In this document: positions 1-41,772 of the stretch, piece after piece
Position numbering within the stretch: the first letter of the stretch is position 1
How the letters are laid out: each line of letters opens with the position of its first letter
DNA from: a virus
Length of the DNA stretch: 64,000 nt
Direction: 5' to 3' (one strand)
Virus record (IMG/VR): IMGVR_UViG_3300048577_000133
Location: 1-64,000 of that record
Position numbers and translations under genes: made by a program
Notes under the pieces: model-generated
Told to the model about the DNA's origin: nothing
The model's database searches: none
What the model saw: the letters and a program-made list of their open reading frames with translations, nothing else

Positions 1-810
1 CAACAACTTTTGATGCTGCGCTTGCAGCATTTACTGTTATTGCTTTCGTGCCTGTTACTCCCGAACCGTCGTTGGCTGTTGCCGATATTGTCACTGAACC
101 AGGCGCAATCAACGTTACAAGCCCGGAGCTGTTAACCGTTGCTTTTGCTGGATCAGAAGAACTCCACACCACTGACTGATTTGTCGCGTTGGAAGGCGTA
201 ATGGAGGCCGCTAACTGGATTGTACCACCAACCGTTCCAGCTGAATTACCTGAAACTGAAATAGCTGAAACTGCTATGTTTGATGCGCTTATCGTTATTG
301 CTTTCGTGCCTGTTACTCCCGAACCGTCGTTGGCTGTTGCCGATATTGTCACTGAACCAGGCGCAATCAACGTTACAAGCCCGGAACTGCTTACAGTCGC
401 TTTTGCTGGATCCGACGAGCTCCACACCACGTTTTTATTAGTTGCATTTGAAGGGGTTATTGAAGCAGCAAGCTGTATTGTTCCACCTACTGCACCGGTT
501 GCATTTCCTGAAACTGAAATAGCTGAAACAGCAATATTCACTTGATTTATAGTCAGTGCTTTAGTACCTGTTACTCCCGATCCATCGCTGGCAGTTGCCG
601 TAATAGTCACCGATCCGGCCGCAATGAGAGTGACAAGCCCGGAGCTGTTAACCGTTGCTTTTGCTGGATCAGAAGAACTCCACACCACTGACTGATTTGT
701 CGCATTTGAAGGGGTAACGGATGCCGCTAACTGGATTGTAGTTCCCATATTTCCAGACGAATTGCCGGTAACGGCAATCGCCGTTACCAGTACCGCATTG
801 GAAGCAGAAA
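1..810. repeat. Tandem 258-bp repeats (3 copies, starting about 37, 295 and 553), each encoding one Big_2 domain
   Basis: Long identical stretches, e.g. 37-125 vs 295-383 and 119-186 vs 637-704. A more diverged fourth domain lies at about 815-1020. Confidence 0.85.
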
Positions 811-2752
811 CAACATTTACAGATTGCTCAACAAACTTGGTATGATCTGCATTTGAAGTGACTCTGATTGTTGCACTGCCTATTGCTTTTGCTGTAATAA
901 GTCCATCTTTACTTATTTCAATCACTTCATTATCAGAAGATGAATAAGTTGCTGACTGATTTGAAGCATTTGAAGGCGTAGTTGCAATTGAAATCTGAGA
1001 TGTTTGATTCACAATAACTTGTGATGGAATCGTAGGCGTAAATACCGTCAAAGCAACCGGAATTGCAGTTGCCTTTGCAGCATTCAGTCTTGTCAAAAAT
1101 GGTGTTTGTAATGATGTATTTAATTTATTTACAAAAAACATCGCATCATTATAGTAATCAAGAAAAATAGTGCTTGCCGTTTTTGATTCAGCGATAGCGA
1201 CATATTTTTCTGCTAGTACAACCAAATTTGAATTGAATGAAGCATTGATTAACAATGCACTTCCCGAAGTCGCTTGTGACTGCTTAATACAATCAGCATA
1301 AATCCGCACATCGTAGGTATTGTCAATGCCTGAAATTAGTAGTGAGGCTTCCTTAAACTTAAAGAATTCAGGATTTGGAATTTCTACATCGAAAATCACT
1401 TTTGAACCTGAGAATGAATCAGCTGCATTGTCTTTTACTGAATTTACAGTGCGTAGAATTGTTGCATTTTTCCTTATATAAAGGTACTCAAACAACTCGT
1501 CTAAAGTTGCTGACCACATCGTATCAGAGCCATCGGCTCCGTATGTATCGTTAAGCCACATTAGACCGTCTTCACAAAAATCTTGTACCGCACCGGGGCT
1601 GATCTGGTGAGTTCTCATGTGCACTAGTTTCCCTGATCCTATCAGGCTAGTAACAACCGCTTTAAAGGTTTCAATTGTCCAGCTAAATTCGGCTGGAAAC
1701 ACTAATTTATCAATTGCGGTTATTGTCTTCAAATTAAGCGTCGATTGTGGAATAGCGTATGAATCATTCTCATCACAACCGGCCAGATAGTTTTTAAAAG
1801 CCCACATAGCTTCTACAAACTTATTATCACCATTCGGTCTACATTCCACCGTAGGAAGCTTACCGAGAAGTGTACTAATTGTAGATAAACTTTTAACCAG
1901 GGATTCATATTCTGTCGCTCCTTCCACCCCTGACTCATGCGTATAAACGCCTCCGAAAAAGTCAAAAAACGTTTGAATTTCTGCTTCAGAAATGTAAGGA
2001 TTCAAAAATCCTTGTGTTGATGCAATCCAGGACGCGATCGGAGCAATTCCAACCCGGACAGGCAACCTATTTCCGGTACCATCAGTGTGTCCTATTAACT
2101 TTCCGGCGTATTTACCTAACCGATAGTCTGCGTCGGATGAATCATGATAAGCATAACCTTTACTCCCAAAATAGTCAACGGTTCGTCTTGTCGAGGCATA
2201 CCTATTATTTACATATCGCTGAATCAATCCGTATATTCCGGTGTACCCGTCATCACTCGTTAGCGCGAAAACAAAGTCCTTGTTAAATTTTAAAGGGGCA
2301 ACAGTCATCTGTACTGTTGCAGGATCAACTGCTGTTGGAACACGAACAACAACCCGCATTTTATACGATTCTGGTTCCGTAACGGTAGCAGCTATCGTAT
2401 CAGGAACATTTTTCAAAACGCTGAAGTTTATTGCTGACGTTAGCGTATTAAGTAATGTAGCAATTCCAGCAGCATCAATATTTTGACCTGTTGGCAAATT
2501 CTTAAGCTTAGTATAATCAATTTTTAGTGCATCATTTGTAGCACCATTAATTGCTGTTATAATTGCCGAAAGCGATTGAAATGCAATATTGGTGACATTT
2601 GAAGCGTCAATCTTTCCAGCAGTTGATAAATTTTGAACTTTTGAATTGTATTCAGATATGATTGAATTGATCTTATTTACAATTAAATTTAGCTCATTTG
2701 CTGAGAGTTGTTCCCCCGTAACTTTTGTTGGTATTGATAATGATGTTACCAT
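1..2752 (-). CDS. Large virion-associated protein, 3' end cut by window edge (>917 aa); central NodB/CE4-like motifs; four C-terminal Big_2 Ig-like repeats
   Basis: Manual minus-strand translation from ATG 2752-2750 (2 nt after the upstream stop) stays open to position 1, which explains its absence from the ORF track. Repeats read TIQLAASITPSNATNQSVVWSSSDPAKATVNSSGLVTLIAPGSVTISATANDGSGVTGTKAIT (Big_2 signature). Central motifs are FALTSDDG, YTHESG and CRPNG. Confidence 0.7.
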   Translation of the reverse strand, partial: MVTSLSIPTKVTGEQLSANELNLIVNKINSIISEYNSKVQNLSTAGKIDASNVTNIAFQSLSAIITAINGATNDALKIDYTKLKNLPTGQNIDAAGIATLLNTLTSAINFSVLKNVPDTIAATVTEPESYKMRVVVRVPTAVDPATVQMTVAPLKFNKDFVFALTSDDGYTGIYGLIQRYVNNRYASTRRTVDYFGSKGYAYHDSSDADYRLGKYAGKLIGHTDGTGNRLPVRVGIAPIASWIASTQGFLNPYISEAEIQTFFDFFGGVYTHESGVEGATEYESLVKSLSTISTLLGKLPTVECRPNGDNKFVEAMWAFKNYLAGCDENDSYAIPQSTLNLKTITAIDKLVFPAEFSWTIETFKAVVTSLIGSGKLVHMRTHQISPGAVQDFCEDGLMWLNDTYGADGSDTMWSATLDELFEYLYIRKNATILRTVNSVKDNAADSFSGSKVIFDVEIPNPEFFKFKEASLLISGIDNTYDVRIYADCIKQSQATSGSALLINASFNSNLVVLAEKYVAIAESKTASTIFLDYYNDAMFFVNKLNTSLQTPFLTRLNAAKATAIPVALTVFTPTIPSQVIVNQTSQISIATTPSNASNQSATYSSSDNEVIEISKDGLITAKAIGSATIRVTSNADHTKFVEQSVNVVSASNAVLVTAIAVTGNSSGNMGTTIQLAASVTPSNATNQSVVWSSSDPAKATVNSSGLVTLIAAGSVTITATASDGSGVTGTKALTINQVNIAVSAISVSGNATGAVGGTIQLAASITPSNATNKNVVWSSSDPAKATVSSSGLVTLIAPGSVTISATANDGSGVTGTKAITISASNIAVSAISVSGNSAGTVGGTIQLAASITPSNATNQSVVWSSSDPAKATVNSSGLVTLIAPGSVTISATANDGSGVTGTKAITVNAASAASKVV

Positions 2753-2754
2753 AT

Positions 2755-3405
2755 TTATTCACTTTTAAAATTGACAGTTGAGTTAAGAAGCGTGTCTTTC
2801 GTTGTTTTTATTGTCAATCCAAATTGAGTAAACTTTGCAACTGATCCTACTTCCTTTTGTCCTACCAGGTCAACATTTTCAACTCGGAATCGATACCCTC
2901 TCTCATACCAATCTTTGAAAGAGACATTGAATGGTTCTTGTCTTTCGATTGTAAACTCTCCGGTTATTTCTCCACTTTCATTGAAAGCTTTTAGAGTTGC
3001 AGATTTTCCAAATGTTTCGGCAATCATTTGTTCACACTTGGTAATTATCCTTTCTTCACGGGTTATGTACACAATTTGAAAATATAGGTCAAAAAGCGTG
3101 TCAGGATTCTTGACCACTTTGAACCGGTCACCGTCTGGAACGTTTTTATAACCTCCTATCGCTCCAATGCTGGAAGGCATGACATAGACAAAACTTACAA
3201 CGATGGTGTTTTCATTCTTATGTTTCTTGCTCTTGTATTGTCCCCCGCCCATGACTTCAATCAGATCACCAATTTCGGTCTTTGCTTCTTCATATCCAGC
3301 TTCGTTATTCGGTAAATACTGTAGTATGTCAGGGATATACCCCTTACTGACTGCAATAGTTCTAATTGCATCAAGTATTCCCATTCCGATTTCTTCTATT
3401 GTCAT
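2755..3405 (-). CDS. Hypothetical neck/tail structural protein (216 aa)
   Basis: ORF overlaps the upstream stop (3402-3405) and lies in the head-to-tail joining block. No motif recognised. Confidence 0.5.
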   Translation of the reverse strand: MTIEEIGMGILDAIRTIAVSKGYIPDILQYLPNNEAGYEEAKTEIGDLIEVMGGGQYKSKKHKNENTIVVSFVYVMPSSIGAIGGYKNVPDGDRFKVVKNPDTLFDLYFQIVYITREERIITKCEQMIAETFGKSATLKAFNESGEITGEFTIERQEPFNVSFKDWYERGYRFRVENVDLVGQKEVGSVAKFTQFGLTIKTTKDTLLNSTVNFKSE

Positions 3406-6989: not shown

Positions 6990-8471
6990 CTATTTATTTT
7001 CGTGTAAATACTGGGCCATTGACGGAATTACTTGTTCAGTAGCTCCGCTGTTGCCTTCCGGCTCTGATTTGCGCATACTAATGTTTTTAGAACCGCACTT
7101 TTGGCAAGTTGCGCCAAACACTTCAAGAGACTTTCCACCAAACTGGTTAATGTAACTATTTGCCAATTCCAGGTTTGCTGTTTTGATACTTGATAACATT
7201 GCATTACTGATTTTATCGCCGGCAGAAAGTTTATACAATCGTTCAGCTTCAACGCGAGCTGCCGAAAGAGTTTGGTTTTGCTCTTTTGCAAAAGGAATTA
7301 TATTTTCAAGTCCTACCTCTGTTTCCAAAGTGGCAACATCTTCATGTTTGCAAATCTTTGCGTAATCAGCAAGCTGCGTATTGGCAACATCAAGACTTTT
7401 GCTTGCAGTGGATAAATTGGTGTTTGCTTCCGACAAATCGGTTTCCAATTTGGCATATGCTGTTGCTTCAACTACTTTTTGGGTAGGCGCAACTACTTGC
7501 AGATTTGCAATAAAATCTGCGGTTAATTCAGTTTCGGTTTTACCGAATTTTTCTGTAAGTAATTTGATTAAATTCATTTCTTTGTTTTTTCCGTTATCGC
7601 CTGTTTTTGAAAAATTTTGCTTATTAAAAGATACTTGTTTTACAGACTGTTCGCTATCAAAAACAAATAATCTTCCTTCTTTTTCGTAAATTGAAAACAA
7701 TGGGTCTTCTGTGGCTTTTGACATACTTACCACATTTGATTTTTCGATATTAAGCGGATTGCCTTCGCTATCCAAAATTTTAGCAAAAGGATCGGCACCT
7801 AACCAAACTAAAGAGGTTTCGTGACATTCAATAACATTAGTTACAACGCGACAAACCATTTTCCCGTCAACCATTTGTCCCAGATTGTCCCTAAACTCAT
7901 ACCAGTCGTATTCACCATTTTGTTTAAAATCGTGTGATGGCTCCCACTCAAATACTACTGTAATTGAAACAGATTGGATATGTGGCACCGGGAACGCGGC
8001 AAGTTTCCGGCAAATATCAGCGTGTAACTTTCCGTCAATCCATATTGGGCCTTCAATACCAGCCGGAATAAATTGCCCCGAATCATCGGTTCTGGAAGGA
8101 ACAAATTTTAAGTCGCCATTGGCCCCGACAATATTGTCAGTTTCAAATTCGTGATTAACCATTACCGGTTTGTTTGAAAGCAAACCAGCTACTTTTTTTA
8201 ACACCTTTTCATTTGAAAAGTCTGTTGCCTTCCAGGTACCGCCGCCTACAATTGTGGCCGAAATGTGACGAAAGTTGAACGGCAAGAAATCTTCAGGCTT
8301 TGGTATAGCATCTTCTATGTTCGAATTTACCTGCTTTTGCCTGTAATCCCTGTTTGCCCAAGAGTAGTTTCCTTCGCCTATTTGTTTTTTAAACGATTCG
8401 GCTTGTTTCTCATCAGGTACGCCAATAAATGCGCGTCCATTTGCAAAATGCAAAATTCCGGTTTGTTTCAT
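6990..8471 (-). CDS. Putative prohead protease / scaffolding protein (493 aa)
   Basis: Sits between the portal block and the capsid gene. Has a C-terminal coiled-coil region and a CQKCGS zinc-ribbon-like tail. Ends in TAG. Confidence 0.45.
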   Translation of the reverse strand: MKQTGILHFANGRAFIGVPDEKQAESFKKQIGEGNYSWANRDYRQKQVNSNIEDAIPKPEDFLPFNFRHISATIVGGGTWKATDFSNEKVLKKVAGLLSNKPVMVNHEFETDNIVGANGDLKFVPSRTDDSGQFIPAGIEGPIWIDGKLHADICRKLAAFPVPHIQSVSITVVFEWEPSHDFKQNGEYDWYEFRDNLGQMVDGKMVCRVVTNVIECHETSLVWLGADPFAKILDSEGNPLNIEKSNVVSMSKATEDPLFSIYEKEGRLFVFDSEQSVKQVSFNKQNFSKTGDNGKNKEMNLIKLLTEKFGKTETELTADFIANLQVVAPTQKVVEATAYAKLETDLSEANTNLSTASKSLDVANTQLADYAKICKHEDVATLETEVGLENIIPFAKEQNQTLSAARVEAERLYKLSAGDKISNAMLSSIKTANLELANSYINQFGGKSLEVFGATCQKCGSKNISMRKSEPEGNSGATEQVIPSMAQYLHENK

Positions 8472-13657: not shown

Positions 13658-13720
13658 AATCTTAAATTTTATTGCCTTTACTGTTTTTCCTACTCTTTTA
13701 AGGATTTTCGGAATACTCCT

Positions 13721-13737
13721 GAATTGTTAAACAATTC
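13721..13737. promoter_or_regulatory. Perfect palindrome GAATTGTT-A-AACAATTC (operator-like)
   Basis: 8-bp arms with a 1-nt spacer, in the intergenic region upstream of the 63-aa and HTH genes. Confidence 0.4.
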
Positions 13738-30296: not shown

Positions 30297-30632
30297 CTAA
30301 AGTCGAATTTCCTTGAAGGTGTTTAGATCGAAAATTGCTATCTGTTCATTTTTACGACCAAATTGAACAGCTTCGTCAAGATTTTCGAAGATTTTTGAAG
30401 AGTCGAAGTAAAACAATTTGTTTTCTTCGTTCATCCATCCACCTACGATTTTGTCATGACTTAAAGCATGTTCAACTGCTTTTTTCAATCCATCTGCTCC
30501 GAAACAATTTTGAGTTTCTTTGTAAGCTACAATGTAACCTGAAATCACCCAGCTCATTTCTGGAAGCTTAACCGTAAATCCTTCTGGATTTTCTTTTGCA
30601 ATCTTTTCGATTGCGTTGATCATTTGTTTCAT
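30297..30632 (-). CDS. Hypothetical protein (111 aa)
   Basis: ORF only. Confidence 0.5.
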   Translation of the reverse strand: MKQMINAIEKIAKENPEGFTVKLPEMSWVISGYIVAYKETQNCFGADGLKKAVEHALSHDKIVGGWMNEENKLFYFDSSKIFENLDEAVQFGRKNEQIAIFDLNTFKEIRL

Positions 30633-33259: not shown

Positions 33260-33287
33260 TACAAAACAATTAAATGATATTTTTCAA

Positions 33288-33319
33288 ATAAAAAAAACCG
33301 GACTAATTCTAATCCGGTT
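33288..33319 (-). terminator. Rho-independent terminator
   Basis: Minus strand AACCGGATTAGAATTAGTCCGGTT followed by TTTTTTTTATTTG. Confidence 0.8.
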
Positions 33320-33421
33320 TAATGGCTATTGTTGGGTGTACATCTGTTTAACTCATTTCAATTCCTAAAAGGTTCGATTGTAATTACACCCCAGTAAGTA
33401 TCTAAATAATTTTAAACATAA

Positions 33422-33841
33422 TTACTTTGCACAACAGTATTTATACTTCTTTCCCGATCCACACGGACACGGCCTATTCCTGAATATTTTGGGCTCTGTA
33501 CGAACCGGAATGATAATTGCTTCACGTTTTTTCTTTGTCAAGTGTGAGTACTTCATGTCGAACATTTCAATTTCTGGCAATTCTGGACGTGCTGTATAAG
33601 GTAATATCGTTGGTTCTGGCAATATACCTACCTCGATCAATTCCTCATTCGAATGCTGAATCTCATCAATTGAATGAATGTGTTCAACTCTATTTGCACA
33701 TATACCGTGTGCCGTTGCTATTGCTGAAGCCACTGCGGATACACCTGGTCCAGAACCAACTAAAACAACTTTTCTATTTACATGATCACCCCAAATCTTA
33801 CGGTGTTCTTCCAAATTTCCAATATGCAATTTTTCTTCCAT
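33422..33841 (-). CDS. SEC-C motif protein (139 aa)
   Basis: C-terminal CPCGSGKKYKYCC. The N-terminal domain is unrecognised. Confidence 0.6.
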   Translation of the reverse strand: MEEKLHIGNLEEHRKIWGDHVNRKVVLVGSGPGVSAVASAIATAHGICANRVEHIHSIDEIQHSNEELIEVGILPEPTILPYTARPELPEIEMFDMKYSHLTKKKREAIIIPVRTEPKIFRNRPCPCGSGKKYKYCCAK

Positions 33842-33959
33842 CGCTTAGTTTTTTACTTCATCAACGCCTATCCGGTTGTATTTCCCAGAAAACAGAATCG
33901 CCCATTTCGAACTGTACTTTTCTGCCTTATCGGCGTTGACTTTTTCTTAATAAAGGTTG

Positions 33960-34048
33960 TGGAACCGGAAGGATTCGAACCTTCGCCTTATGCACTGACT
34001 AAGTCAGATATTACGAGAACGCACCTTAAAAATTATTTTCACAGTTCC
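33960..34048 (-). tRNA. tRNA-like element 1 (89 nt), anticodon arm not foldable by eye
   Basis: Acceptor GGAACTG/CGGTTCC (one G-U pair) and canonical T arm GAAGG-TTCGAAT-CCTTC. An internal CTGAC-TTA-GTCAG hairpin and an A/T-only D region make it non-canonical. Confidence 0.4.
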
Positions 34049-34139
34049 ATCCAGCACTTTACCCAAGTACACAGGGAGACAGTTTTCCTTATATTTTTCA
34101 GATATTAAAGAAAATCTAAAAAACAAACTTTTATCTGTG

Positions 34140-34228
34140 TGCCTGATACTGGATTTAAACCAGTATCCTTTTCCCTCCGGGGAAACATTTCGGTGTAAAA
34201 GCCACTCTATCAATTGAGCTAATCAGGC
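34140..34228 (-). tRNA. tRNA-like element 2 (89 nt) with long variable arm, degenerate anticodon arm
   Basis: Perfect acceptor GCCTGAT/ATCAGGC, D arm GCTC-AATTGATA-GAGT, variable hairpin TTTCCC-CGGA-GGGAAA and T arm ACTGG-TTTAAAT-CCAGT. The anticodon region GCTTTTACACCGAAATG pairs at only 3 bp. Confidence 0.4.
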
Positions 34229-34331
34229 ATTTTTTGCCCCGGATGAATAACCAAAACCGGGGCATTGCATTTAGCGGGCAATATTATCTGAATCTCATTT
34301 CGTCGCTCCTTTCTAGTTAGTTAGTAAATTT

Positions 34332-35114
34332 TTAAAATAACTTCAATTGCGAAATATGCCAGTTATACCGGTTTTCCTGATCTTCGTAATACTTCGAATC
34401 AATCTCAGTACCAACAAAATTCAAATTCAAATCATAACAAACAATTCTTTGGCTTCCAGAACCTAAATGAGTATCGAGTATCTTGTAACCAGGTTTAGCA
34501 AACCGTGAAAGCAAATACTTATACACTTCAAACGGTTTTTCAGTCGGATGAATTCGCTTTTGGTTCTTTTCTTTAAACGGATTCATTACGGTACCTTCTC
34601 TAAATGATTTACCTTGCATCATTCCAGACCACATGAAATAAAATACCTCAGTCGGTACTGGAAACGAAACCCACACTAATTCACAGTCATTAAACCCTGT
34701 TGTTGAATTCACTTTGTCCCAAATAATCCAGTTTGTCGGATGATCTTTGATGAACTGTTCGTATTCGTGCCGTCTGGGTGTTTTAAACTCAGTGCTGCAA
34801 ATTGCCGGGAAATAATTGGCTCCGAATATGATTTGATGTTCTGTTACCCGCTTTAACTCTGTGAAATATTCGTCACCTGTCTTTTGCTGATCCCACAAAG
34901 CATTGTGATACTCTTTTGAGTTAGTCGCCCGGCTCCGGCTTTTGTTATTCCGGTGGCTGTTACCATCTATGCCATAAACAGGATCCACACTACCAATGTC
35001 AAAAAACTGATCTGGAAAGCTTTTGGTTATTATTTTGTAGTCCTCATTAAATGTGAGGGAAAAACACCCGTTTTTGTCGAGTTGCAGGATTTGACGCTGT
35101 AATTGATCAATCAT
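34332..35114 (-). CDS. N4/N6 DNA methyltransferase (PF01555-type, 260 aa)
   Basis: SVDPVYG (DPPY-like), HPTEKP and LDTHLGSGS. Confidence 0.8.
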   Translation of the reverse strand: MIDQLQRQILQLDKNGCFSLTFNEDYKIITKSFPDQFFDIGSVDPVYGIDGNSHRNNKSRSRATNSKEYHNALWDQQKTGDEYFTELKRVTEHQIIFGANYFPAICSTEFKTPRRHEYEQFIKDHPTNWIIWDKVNSTTGFNDCELVWVSFPVPTEVFYFMWSGMMQGKSFREGTVMNPFKEKNQKRIHPTEKPFEVYKYLLSRFAKPGYKILDTHLGSGSQRIVCYDLNLNFVGTEIDSKYYEDQENRYNWHISQLKLF

Positions 35115-35137
35115 TATTCTCCAGTATTCAGTTCTTT

Positions 35138-35707
35138 TTATTCGAATGTCGGATAAAAAAAACTCAATTTTCCTTTAACATTTAGAATCGGTTTTTCAAA
35201 TAGGATAGGGTGGGAGACAAGCCAGTTCCAGATAATAGGTTTTGTATTATCTATCACATGTCCACCGGCTGAAATACCTTCAGACTTTTCAGCCCAAATT
35301 GATGAGTGATTGATAAAACAGTCCTTAAACTTCACCGCGCCAATAATGGCACTGTATTCAAGTGAATTATTTGCAATAATTCTATTTTCCTGACCTATTG
35401 AGTCATATTGTTCATTTGTCAATAAATCAAACGGCGTTTTAAGTCTTTTTGCACTTGCATGAATCAAAACCCATTTTCCTTTATGCTTTTCAGGCATTTT
35501 CCACGTTCTGTTTTCAATATCTTTTATCCCGGAACAAAGCAACCAAGCCCACGGTTGCATAACCGAAATAGCTGGCATTGGCTCCGGTATTTCGTCACTC
35601 AATAACCAGTTATCACATTTTGGACAATTATGATGACCGGCTATGTATTGTTGATCATCGTAAATATGAATGTGCTCACATTTCGGACAAACAATAAAGT
35701 ATTTCAT
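35138..35707 (-). CDS. ASCH-domain protein with N-terminal zinc ribbon (189 aa)
   Basis: CPKCEH...CPKCDN, then SVMQPWAWLLCSGIKDIENRTWKMPEKHKGKWVLIHAS. Confidence 0.6.
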   Translation of the reverse strand: MKYFIVCPKCEHIHIYDDQQYIAGHHNCPKCDNWLLSDEIPEPMPAISVMQPWAWLLCSGIKDIENRTWKMPEKHKGKWVLIHASAKRLKTPFDLLTNEQYDSIGQENRIIANNSLEYSAIIGAVKFKDCFINHSSIWAEKSEGISAGGHVIDNTKPIIWNWLVSHPILFEKPILNVKGKLSFFYPTFE

Positions 35708-39331: not shown

Positions 39332-39485
39332 TGTTCAGTGAACAATTTAAACCAAAAAGCCGAAAGGCGAGTTTTTTACTTTTCCCACTCTTTCGGCTTT
39401 TATCTACTGTGATGTGTGTCAATGATTTACATTGTTCACTTTTGTTCACTCAAAATTGTTCACTCTGTTCTTCTCTGTGTTCACT
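39332..39485. promoter_or_regulatory. Cluster of TGTTCACT motifs (4 direct copies plus palindrome TGTTCAGTGAACA) upstream of terS
   Basis: Direct copies at 39433, 39443, 39457 and 39478. Palindrome at 39332-39344, 20 nt upstream of ATG 39312. Confidence 0.5.
39354..39398 (-). terminator. Possible terminator (long-loop hairpin)
   Basis: AGCCGAAAG-N23-CTTTCGGCT followed on the minus strand by TTTTTGGTTT. Confidence 0.45.
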
Positions 39486-39797
39486 CTCTGTCACATCTAA
39501 GACTACCCAATCTTCAGCCAGAATATCAGTAATAGTCGGTGTCCAACCACAAATCAAATTGCTTTCATTAACAATTGCTAATTGATCGTCGTAATAAATT
39601 GCATTGATTTGTTCATCCTTGAACCTTCTTTGAAATTCATCTTTTACCGACTGAGGTAAAGACTACATTTTTGGAACAATTTCCTTCGAGATAGTAGAAG
39701 GAATTTGCATAAATACAAATAATCCACTCCACATGCAATTTAAACGTGTAACTCTTTTGCCTTGTCTTAATGCTTCTATAGCTTCTCCAAATTTCAT
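39450..39797 (-). pseudogene. DUF2829 / Tad2-like gene with a single in-frame TAG (39663-39665)
   Basis: Codon-by-codon translation gives MKFGEAIEALRQGKRVTRLNCMWSGLFVFMQIPSTISKEIVPKM, then TAG, then SLPQSVKDEF...LICGWTPTITDILAEDWVVL. Family hallmarks lie on both sides of the stop. Confidence 0.7.
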
Positions 39798-40039: not shown

Positions 40040-40675
40040 TTATTTTTGTAGCCATACAAGTCTTTCGTGCAAACACTGGCTGTATGTTTTCATTACCTGT
40101 AATTGAATATTTAGCAATGTGATTTGCTCCGGATCAATTTCCTTTGATTTATCTTTCATGAAAAAGACTTCAAGCCTACCAATACGTCCGTCAACTTCAT
40201 TCTTTTCGTCAATAAGACGTTCTAAAAATCCCGGACTTGGTTTTGTAATGCCATCAACAATATCAGAAACAATTTCTTTGGCTTCCTGTAGCTCTTTAAC
40301 AATTTCAACAAACGCTACCTCAATAGCCCAACCAATTGTAGTATTTTCGTAATCTCCAAAATCGGCTTCAACGATAAACCCACCGTCTCTGAAAACTACT
40401 TCAGATTCTTCTGTATCATCCCCACTAAACTCAATTGACACAGTATCCCCTCCTTTTGACATTTCCCCATTCACAGGAATAGAACCGAATATTCTTTCCC
40501 CATTTTTATCAAACTCCCCGGTAAACATGCCGATTGATTTTGCTTCAACCTCATAATCTACCCCATTACTTCTGATGTAGTGCCATGTTCCATCAGACCA
40601 ATAAAATCCCTCAATAGGTTCATAGATGTCTGCTCTTTTCCCCCTGAACAATACTTCAAATTTTGATTTTCTCAT
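40040..40675 (-). CDS. YopX-like protein with C-terminal coiled coil
   Basis: KFEVLFRGKRADIYEPIEGFYWSDGTWHYI...SIGMFTGEFDKNGERIFGS fits the YopX pattern. Start taken at ATG 40675. Confidence 0.6.
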   Translation of the reverse strand: MRKSKFEVLFRGKRADIYEPIEGFYWSDGTWHYIRSNGVDYEVEAKSIGMFTGEFDKNGERIFGSIPVNGEMSKGGDTVSIEFSGDDTEESEVVFRDGGFIVEADFGDYENTTIGWAIEVAFVEIVKELQEAKEIVSDIVDGITKPSPGFLERLIDEKNEVDGRIGRLEVFFMKDKSKEIDPEQITLLNIQLQVMKTYSQCLHERLVWLQK

Positions 40676-40694
40676 TTTTTTTGTGTTTTTGTGT

Positions 40695-41228
40695 TTATTC
40701 TTTAAATACTTCAATTGCTCTTTTGGCCAATTCAACTATTTTAATTTTTAGCTCTTTGTAATTGGTGTTATCGTAGCATTCAAAAATCATATTCAACTCA
40801 TACCCGGTACTATCTGTCTTTCCAATTTCAACGTTTTCCCAATGATCTAACTCCTGCTCATCCAAGAGTAGACTTATTTCAAGACGTTGGCCGCATTCGT
40901 CGCAAAAAAGAAAGCCGTCATTTTCGTATCCACCTCCGTAATTATAGCAATAATCAAATTTATCAAATGGATCATCCCGGTAATAATCATACATATATTC
41001 CGGTATTTCCGTATTTTTTGGACGTATAGGTTTCTTTCTTTGCTCAATAAGGTATTCTTTCCTGTGATTTTTTACTGCTTTCTCAATACATTTATCACAA
41101 TAATCACCTTCCTGATCATTTGAATTTTTAGTTACCCAGTTAACATTGCTTGTTTCATTATGAACTTTCAAATAATAACTATCTGTCAGATTTATTGCTT
41201 TTTCAATGATTTCTTCATCTGTTTGCAT
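40695..41228 (-). CDS. Hypothetical Cys-rich protein (177 aa)
   Basis: CDKC ... CDECG motifs. Confidence 0.5.
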   Translation of the reverse strand: MQTDEEIIEKAINLTDSYYLKVHNETSNVNWVTKNSNDQEGDYCDKCIEKAVKNHRKEYLIEQRKKPIRPKNTEIPEYMYDYYRDDPFDKFDYCYNYGGGYENDGFLFCDECGQRLEISLLLDEQELDHWENVEIGKTDSTGYELNMIFECYDNTNYKELKIKIVELAKRAIEVFKE

Positions 41229-41463: not shown

Positions 41464-41772
41464 CTAGTTATCATTATTTGTTTTTTCAATAGCAATCAAT
41501 CGCTTTCTAAGTCTTTCAAGCTTCTTTTTCTTTGCCATAAGTAGCATTTCTTCAGGAACTTGCTTTTTAACGTATTCTAAAACAATGTAAACGTCAGCAA
41601 CTTCTTCTGCAAGATTGTCTGAACACACATCAGATTTATCATCTTCTAATGTTCTGCTAATTGCACGAGCTAACTCACAAAGTTCTTCAATTGATTTAAG
41701 CAATTGTTTTCTTTTACCTATAATAGAATAGGCTTTATCAATTATTTTGTTTTCAGTAGTTGTTATAATCAT
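41464..41772 (-). CDS. MazG-like nucleotide pyrophosphohydrolase (102 aa)
   Basis: IEELCELARAISR ... LAEEVADVYIVLEYV matches the MazG EExxE/D pattern. Confidence 0.55.
   Translation of the reverse strand: MIITTTENKIIDKAYSIIGKRKQLLKSIEELCELARAISRTLEDDKSDVCSDNLAEEVADVYIVLEYVKKQVPEEMLLMAKKKKLERLRKRLIAIEKTNNDN

Follow-up and report, generated by a model that had tools for sequence, protein, structure and literature searches.

The interrupted Tad2-like frame and its neighborhood

The DNA analyzed here, referred to as the window, is a stretch of 64,000 nucleotides from an uncultivated phage, covering part of its genome, in which nearly all of the genes lie on the minus strand. Codon-by-codon translation of the minus strand from 39797 to 39450 gave a frame of 115 codons that includes an internal TAG and is closed by a terminal TGA, with the ATG start codon at 39797..39795 and the TGA at 39452..39450. 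Codons 1 to 44 of the Tad2-like frame encode MKFGEAIEALRQGKRVTRLNCMWSGLFVFMQIPSTISKEIVPKM, and codons 46 to 115, which are in the same frame, encode SLPQSVKDEFQRRFKDEQINAIYYDDQLAIVNESNLICGWTPTITDILAEDWVVLDVTESEHREEQSEQF, beginning with SLPQSVKDEF and ending with GWTPTITDILAEDWVVLDVTESEHREEQSEQF. Because of the TAG at codon 45, the locus contains no uninterrupted ORF of ~85 to 105 residues with a whole Tad2 domain, and the program-made list of ORFs has only a 44-amino-acid ORF and a 35-amino-acid ORF there. Separate translation of the C-terminal part was considered and rejected, as the earliest in-frame start codon 3' of the TAG is a TTG located 35 codons before the end. Upstream of the gene, no Bacteroidetes-type -7 motif (TAnnTTTG) was found, and a scan for sigma-70 promoters stayed at the background level. 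The coordinates of the features are collected in Table 1.

Table 1. Features of the Tad2-like locus, its neighbor, and the tRNA-like elements of the window
Feature	Positions	Strand	Location or basis
Whole interrupted Tad2-like (DUF2829, PF11195) frame	39450..39797	-	Translation, Pfam, AlphaFold2 model against PDB
Codons 1-44, the sole part expected to be translated; helix alpha1 and first strands; profile positions 1-34	39666..39797	-	
Amber TAG, codon 45, in place of a conserved Gln	39663..39665	-	Translation and comparison with homologues
Codons 46-115, presumably untranslated remainder; 32 of 33 highly conserved family columns retained	39453..39662	-	
14-codon C-terminal extension VTESEHREEQSEQF, encoded by the AGTGAACA repeat region	39453..39494	-	
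Five of the six AGTGAACA copies of the window: four direct on the minus strand, one inverted	39337..39485	.	3' end of the Tad2-like ORF and spacer to the next gene
Hairpin with perfect 12-bp arms AAAAGCCGAAAG / CTTTCGGCTTTT, 23-nt loop, ending in a U-run	39355..39401	-	
Upstream neighbor, 231 amino acids, intact; residues 169-226 match PF21825 (crAss001_48 / "Sequestin")	40040..40735	-	
tRNA-like element 1: good acceptor, D, and T arms; long variable arm; no CUA	34140..34228	-	
tRNA-like element 2: 7-bp acceptor stem, canonical T arm; multi-hairpin core, no cloverleaf; no CUA	33957..34048	-	

Tad2 proteins act as sponges for the TIR-derived signaling nucleotides of Thoeris defense: they are small, assemble as homotetramers, and sequester these nucleotides. 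For SPO1 Tad2 and others, the tetrameric state, the binding of gcADPR/3'cADPR (or other signals), and the cancellation of Thoeris defense are known (bioRxiv 10.1101/2023.05.01.538930). The conceptual protein, read through the TAG, matched the Pfam profile PF11195 (Tad2-like, formerly DUF2829) with 55.9 bits (E 6e-15) over profile positions 1 to 72 of 73, the gathering cut-off being 25 bits. The N-terminal fragment alone scored 28.2 bits over positions 1 to 34, and the C-terminal fragment alone scored 28.7 bits over positions 41 to 72. Since the two halves match in register and each exceeds 25 bits, the match is real and belongs to one frame on both sides of the stop. The solved Tad2 structures were also matched by a subfamily profile, for which the conceptual protein was aligned with 41 homologues, namely SptTad2 (8wjd, 3e-23), AcrIIA7/HgmTad2 (8kbi), and SPO1 Tad2 (gp34.65, 8sme). 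The AlphaFold2 model of the read-through protein (pLDDT 76) has the Tad2 arrangement of an N-terminal helix and an antiparallel sheet with helical loops, and the top 24 matches of this model in a Foldseek search of the PDB, which were all of its significant ones, were Tad2 proteins without exception, with target-normalized TM-scores of 0.66 to 0.86. The original prediction, which had described a DUF2829/Tad2-like gene overlooked by the ORF track and split by a single TAG at 39663-39665 with the same frame on both sides, was thus correct in its family assignment, coordinates, and translation; it had left the minus strand unstated.

The gene therefore resembles the known Tad2 proteins in sequence profile and predicted fold. 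Like their genes, it is small, lies in an early or middle phage region ahead of the terminase, and is found beside another sponge gene. Unlike them, its frame is stopped at codon 45 and carries a tail of 14 residues at the C terminus, and the GWNGKG loop reads NCMWSG. The subfamily of the window copy is associated with Bacteroidota, has the motif VPKMQSLPQSVKDEF, and shares only ~30% identity with the solved Tad2 proteins.

The gene immediately upstream encodes an intact protein whose C-terminal match to PF21825 (58.3 bits, with a cut-off of 24.8) identifies a Sequestin domain. Sorek and colleagues gave this family its name and reported that its members bind and sequester the type I Thoeris signal 3'cADPR, that residues E12, Q47, and R61 of SequestinA are essential, and that Sequestin is the family most often fused to Tad2 (bioRxiv 10.1101/2025.07.12.664507). 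In the neighbor, R173, E177, Q211, and R225 reproduce the reported spacing of the key residues with an offset of one residue, as judged by spacing and not by an alignment with SequestinA. As in the Tad2-Sequestin fusions of the same report, the two domains in the window are immediate neighbors on the same strand; in contrast to the fusions, they are encoded by separate genes ~240 nt apart. The domain also differs from the Sequestin sponges in forming the C terminus of a protein of 231 residues. The 165-residue N-terminal region of this protein is possibly a second fused anti-defense module.

On the other side of the Tad2-like frame, the AGTGAACA copies flank the 12-bp-arm hairpin in the region before the 321-amino-acid ORF that precedes the large terminase gene. 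The cluster of copies is probably a protein-binding array, and the hairpin would form a terminator-like end of the transcription unit that contains the Tad2-like gene; a consensus terminator scan missed it because of the 23-nt loop. Together, the cluster and the hairpin look like the regulatory end of a unit located just before the terminase genes, and they may serve as an operator or a pac-type protein-binding array, or mark an early/late boundary.

Upstream of the Tad2-like frame are ParB-like, SMC/AAA-like, SSB, and MazG-like genes, and downstream are the 321-amino-acid ORF and the large terminase. A megablast search with the region from 36.7 to 42.2 kb found no close phage in GenBank. The TerL protein has at most 26 to 29% identity to those of cultured phages, and no record matched the protein exactly. 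The host probably belongs to the phylum Bacteroidota. Three further elements of the window were observed outside the locus. An intergenic full-length match to the Rfam DUF805b RNA motif (RF02914; 47.7 bits, gathering threshold 35.6) lies at 13687-13721 on the minus strand, within the structural gene block. An ORF that runs off the end of the window (1-2755, minus strand) contains three near-identical Ig-like repeats of ~85 residues (…GTTIQLAASxTPSNATNxxVVWSSSDPAKATVxSSGLVTLIAxGSVTIxATAxDGSGVTGTKA…) and probably encodes a tail fiber or decoration protein. In the gap after the ORF at 33422-33841, a near-threshold match to the Streptococcus sRNA SpF36 (33277-33325, minus strand; 39 bits against a gathering threshold of 48) is probably a terminator-like hairpin.

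The ancestral codon and the age of the lesion

We then compared the frame with its homologues, using the best 120 of the 481 proteins found with an E value of 1e-10 or lower. All of these 120 proteins were uninterrupted. In the column of the TAG, 118 had Gln, one had Thr, and one had Ala, and the motif around the stop in relatives was VPKM-Q-SLPQSVKDEF. The Gln codon in the loci that were fetched was CAG in five cases and CAA in four. The original prediction, which placed Q or T after PKM in relatives, was borne out, and the codon that the relatives carry at this position is CAG or CAA. A single C-to-T transition is sufficient to convert CAG to TAG.

The frame was likewise uninterrupted in 3 IMG/VR relatives (58 to 70% identity), in 9 metagenome relatives, and in 18 relatives from GTDB genomes, which were mostly Bacteroidota MAGs (e.g., Prolixibacteraceae, Bacteroidales, and Chitinophagaceae). 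Nearly all of the closer relatives, with 50 to 73% identity, were ~103 amino acids in length and ended in ...DWVILD. The extension VTESEHREEQSEQF of the window copy runs past ...VLD, the usual end point for almost all relatives.

The lesion showed little sign of age. Among the best 120 of the 481 homologues, 58 columns are conserved at 90% or more, and the window copy deviates at 5 of these when the stop is not counted. Four of the five deviations are upstream of the stop, comprising the GWN of the GWNGKG loop, which is also variable in more distant relatives (e.g., L003 and L020), and one V-to-I replacement. Downstream of the stop, only one of the 33 conserved columns deviates (S88T). The mean identity to the homologues was 64% for codons 1 to 44 and 72% for codons 46 to 101, against homologue-to-homologue baselines of 76% and 79%, respectively. 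In codons 46 to 115, comparison with the homologues revealed no second stop, no frameshift, and no excess divergence. The absence of such changes indicates a young lesion when set against the 27% divergence that separates the window copy from its nearest known relative; that relative, the closest intact one at 73% identity, is too distant for an estimate of the age of the mutation or of dN/dS. The gene had been described as intact apart from the amber codon and open to doubt if relatives carried additional disabling mutations; we found the relatives uninterrupted and the 70 codons downstream of the TAG undecayed, so that the amber codon is the sole lesion.

Assembly and decoding of the amber codon

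It had been allowed that the stop could be a sequencing error. A gene with exactly the 44-amino-acid product is called on contigs of JGI samples 3300048578 and 3300048599, and these sister contigs, which are 99.98% and 100% identical to the window, both carry the same TAG. The contig from sample 3300048578 (L015) has one A fewer in a homopolymer (window position 41745, position 2054 of L015), indicating that it was assembled independently. Since the TAG is common to two further assemblies, a one-off assembly error is unlikely, and the same result disposes of a one-off sequencing error. The best full-length protein among 5.8 billion clusters was only 73% identical, and an intact allele of the lineage of the window is thus not on record. 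The TAG allele, the sole one seen for this phage lineage, points to fixation over error. On the other hand, the TAG could be a systematic artefact, such as a miscall at a modified base in a genome that truly reads CAG. The phage encodes at least two DNA methyltransferases, the homopolymer difference in one sister contig suggests that some of the data may be error-prone, and all of the assemblies may share one project and one platform. Against such an artefact, the same base was recovered in three assemblies from different samples, and a systematic error should also damage other genes, none of which is interrupted. We therefore consider an artefact very improbable. As a separate observation, the A-run indel at 41745 is near the start of the MazG-like ORF at 41464-41772 and would shift its frame in the contig from sample 3300048578; the assemblies differ either because the population varies here or because one of them has a homopolymer error.

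The truncation could also have created a new functional product, in which the 44-residue N-terminal peptide would act as a regulator or a dominant-negative partner. The 44-amino-acid ORF is retained in all three assemblies, and it keeps helix alpha1, which makes tetramer contacts in Tad2 (bioRxiv 10.1101/2023.05.01.538930). However, this architecture was absent from all of the relatives examined, and the three assemblies represent essentially one strain, so that their agreement carries no evolutionary weight. A functional short product appears extremely unlikely.

The remaining possibilities concern how TAG is read. In this phage, TAG is a standard terminator: it ends 11 of the 70 large minus-strand ORFs (16% of stops), a GC-rich hairpin and a T-run directly follow the TAG stop at 30297, and the next ATG is within ~10 nt of the TAG stops at 6990 and 42846. 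Read with code 11, the genes for the terminase and baseplate and the other large genes have open frames, and when TAG was dropped from the stop set, the gain in ORF length was far below that obtained for the other stops. No other TAG-interrupted gene was found in the 64 kb among same-frame ORF pairs or in translated gaps between large ORFs; the remaining same-frame pairs across a TAG look like adjacent genes, as judged without homology. Genome-wide recoding was rejected, since the ORF statistics with alternative stop sets, the same-frame pairs, and the gap translation revealed only this interruption.

No tRNA was reported by ARAGORN in the window, and the Rfam search, at the gathering threshold and with E values up to 1, returned only the two odd tRNA-like elements. 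These are the two genes that the original prediction had noticed ~5.5 kb away, and they do exist, at 34228..34140 and 34048..33957 on the minus strand, with a DNA methylase gene on one side and a SEC-C-motif gene on the other. Element 1 scored 41.4 bits against the Rfam tRNA model and has 33 nt where an anticodon arm of 17 nt is expected. Its anticodon stem closes a loop of 6 nt (ACACCG), or of 8 nt with an alternative pairing, and ARAGORN called it only at a lowered threshold, with the 6-nt loop. Judging from the sequence, A19/U56 could replace the usual G19-C56 elbow pair in this element. The only match for element 2 was a weak one to the Rfam tmRNA model (16.6 bits). Neither element has the canonical combination of a cloverleaf, a 5-bp anticodon stem, and a 7-nt loop. 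A "tRNA-Glu(CUC)" proposed by ARAGORN with an intron of 1,496 nt (35550..33959) was rejected as an artefact, as its acceptor stem is mismatched and the methylase gene falls inside the "intron." Searches for relatives of the elements came back empty, both with their exact 3'-end patterns in IMG/VR and GTDB genomes and with the region 33940-34240, compared by blastn with 50,697 GenBank phage records. We raise only as a question whether the elements serve as a decoy or as a primer-like or processing signal. No CUA-anticodon tRNA occurs in the 64-kb window, and the 3.3 kb past its end, covered by L045, contain no tRNA at all.

A U after the stop codon generally provides a strong context for termination in bacteria, and the base that follows the TAG is U. 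A 7-bp hairpin (CUUUACC/GGUAAAG; -6.7 kcal/mol) begins 1 nt after the TAG and was considered as a structure promoting readthrough. It was rejected because the relative L021, which has CAG at the site, contains a stronger equivalent hairpin (-9.6 kcal/mol). Its presence in a relative with CAG indicates that the hairpin simply arises from the codons for SLPQSVK.

On this evidence we weighed the proposal that expression is conditional: TAG would be translated as Gln or some other residue, whether through programmed readthrough or through a suppressor tRNA supplied by this phage, by the host, or by a code-15 phage infecting the same cell, and the sponge would be produced only in some cells or at some times. 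The TAG occupies a column that is Gln in 98% of the best 120 of the 481 homologues, and Gln is the meaning of TAG in code 15 (PMC9523058; bioRxiv 10.1101/2021.08.26.457843). The 70 codons after the TAG are undecayed, two noncanonical tRNA-like genes lie 5.5 kb away, and the 7-bp hairpin is 1 nt past the stop. However, ARAGORN found no tRNA and the two elements from Rfam have neither a CUA nor a 7-nt anticodon loop; with 11 of 70 ORFs ending in TAG, efficient suppression would extend or fuse many proteins; the hairpin is equal or stronger in L021 with its CAG; the base after the stop is U; and the known bacterial signals for UAG readthrough are absent. The suggestion of the original prediction that the gene is expressed conditionally by suppression or readthrough is thus unsupported, given that TAG is an ordinary terminator, that no CUA tRNA and no other interrupted gene were found in the window, and that the hairpin is present in a CAG-bearing relative. 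We regard decoding as unlikely. A narrower form of it, in which the amber codon is a switch and the sponge is produced only when an amber-reading tRNA is available, we hold to be very unlikely. The tRNA would then be one of the phage's own noncanonical tRNA-like RNAs, a tRNA brought in by a code-15 phage in the same cell, or a supE-like suppressor of the host. If such a switch were true, the ancestral Gln would be restored exactly, an anti-defense protein would be tied to a particular stage or host, and the gene would represent an incipient TAG-to-Gln recoding confined to one gene.

[quoted passage not shown] The phage is like the code-15 phages that carry a suppressor tRNA-CUA (PMC9523058; bioRxiv 10.1101/2021.08.26.457843; PMC10879173) in having an amber codon at a Gln position and a probable Bacteroidota host. 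In contrast to those phages, which have many sites in late genes, it has a single in-frame TAG in 64 kb; it keeps TAG as a common terminator (11 of 70 ORFs, 16% of stops, followed in clear cases by a terminator or a start codon) instead of avoiding it; and no CUA tRNA was found in the window and the 3.3 kb beyond. Code 11 leaves the large genes uninterrupted, and ORFs gain much less length when TAG is dropped than when the other stops are. Code 15 throughout the phage is hardly credible.

Interpretation as a probable recent nonsense pseudogene

The Tad2-like frame is likely a young nonsense pseudogene that is real in the population. This agrees with the alternative of a very recent nonsense pseudogene in the original prediction, which is supported by the Gln ancestral state, the single lesion, and the lack of decay. 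The conserved Gln45 codon CAG would have been changed to TAG by a single C-to-T transition, and translation is now expected to end after 44 residues. Since the 44-amino-acid product would lack most of the beta-sheet and the C-terminal GW...DW segment, it would not form a functional sponge, and we infer that the sponge function has been lost.

Two points count against the pseudogene reading. The 70 intact downstream codons fit a young pseudogene and continued translation equally well. In addition, it has to be accepted as a coincidence that the amber codon falls exactly where the family has Gln, which is what TAG specifies in Bacteroidota code-15 phages. Gln is one of about eight codon families that are a single step from TAG.

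With the Tad2-like frame taken as a pseudogene, the phage appears to have once had two adjacent sponges for Thoeris signaling and to have lost one. The loss is plausibly tolerated because the adjacent upstream gene has an intact Sequestin domain, of a family that sequesters 3'cADPR; redundancy with Sequestin would render the loss neutral. The loss could also be favored if the hosts carry guard systems that sense sponges, as systems that fire when sponges deplete a decoy nucleotide would render the loss advantageous. In the study of Panoptes, 14 of 15 T4 escapers were mutated exclusively in the sponge gene acb2, by frameshifts, premature stops, and large deletions; a premature stop in acb2 occurs naturally in Pseudomonas phage PaMx41, and Panoptes also responded weakly to SptTad2 (PMC12657218). 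The gene described here is like the acb2 nonsense alleles of the T4 escapers and PaMx41 (PMC12657218) in that a premature stop would remove a sponge from an otherwise intact phage. It differs in belonging to another sponge family, and selection for its loss is a conjecture.

The gene is probably a pseudogenized member of a known family in a phage without a close cultured relative. Its importance would depend on real decoding of the stop, which nothing that we found supports. The gene is one that ORF callers miss, and it appears to be a natural case of a phage discarding one of two adjacent Thoeris sponges for the same signal, and as such it may be mildly useful for understanding the turnover of anti-defense islands and the cost of sponges in the face of Panoptes-type guard systems.
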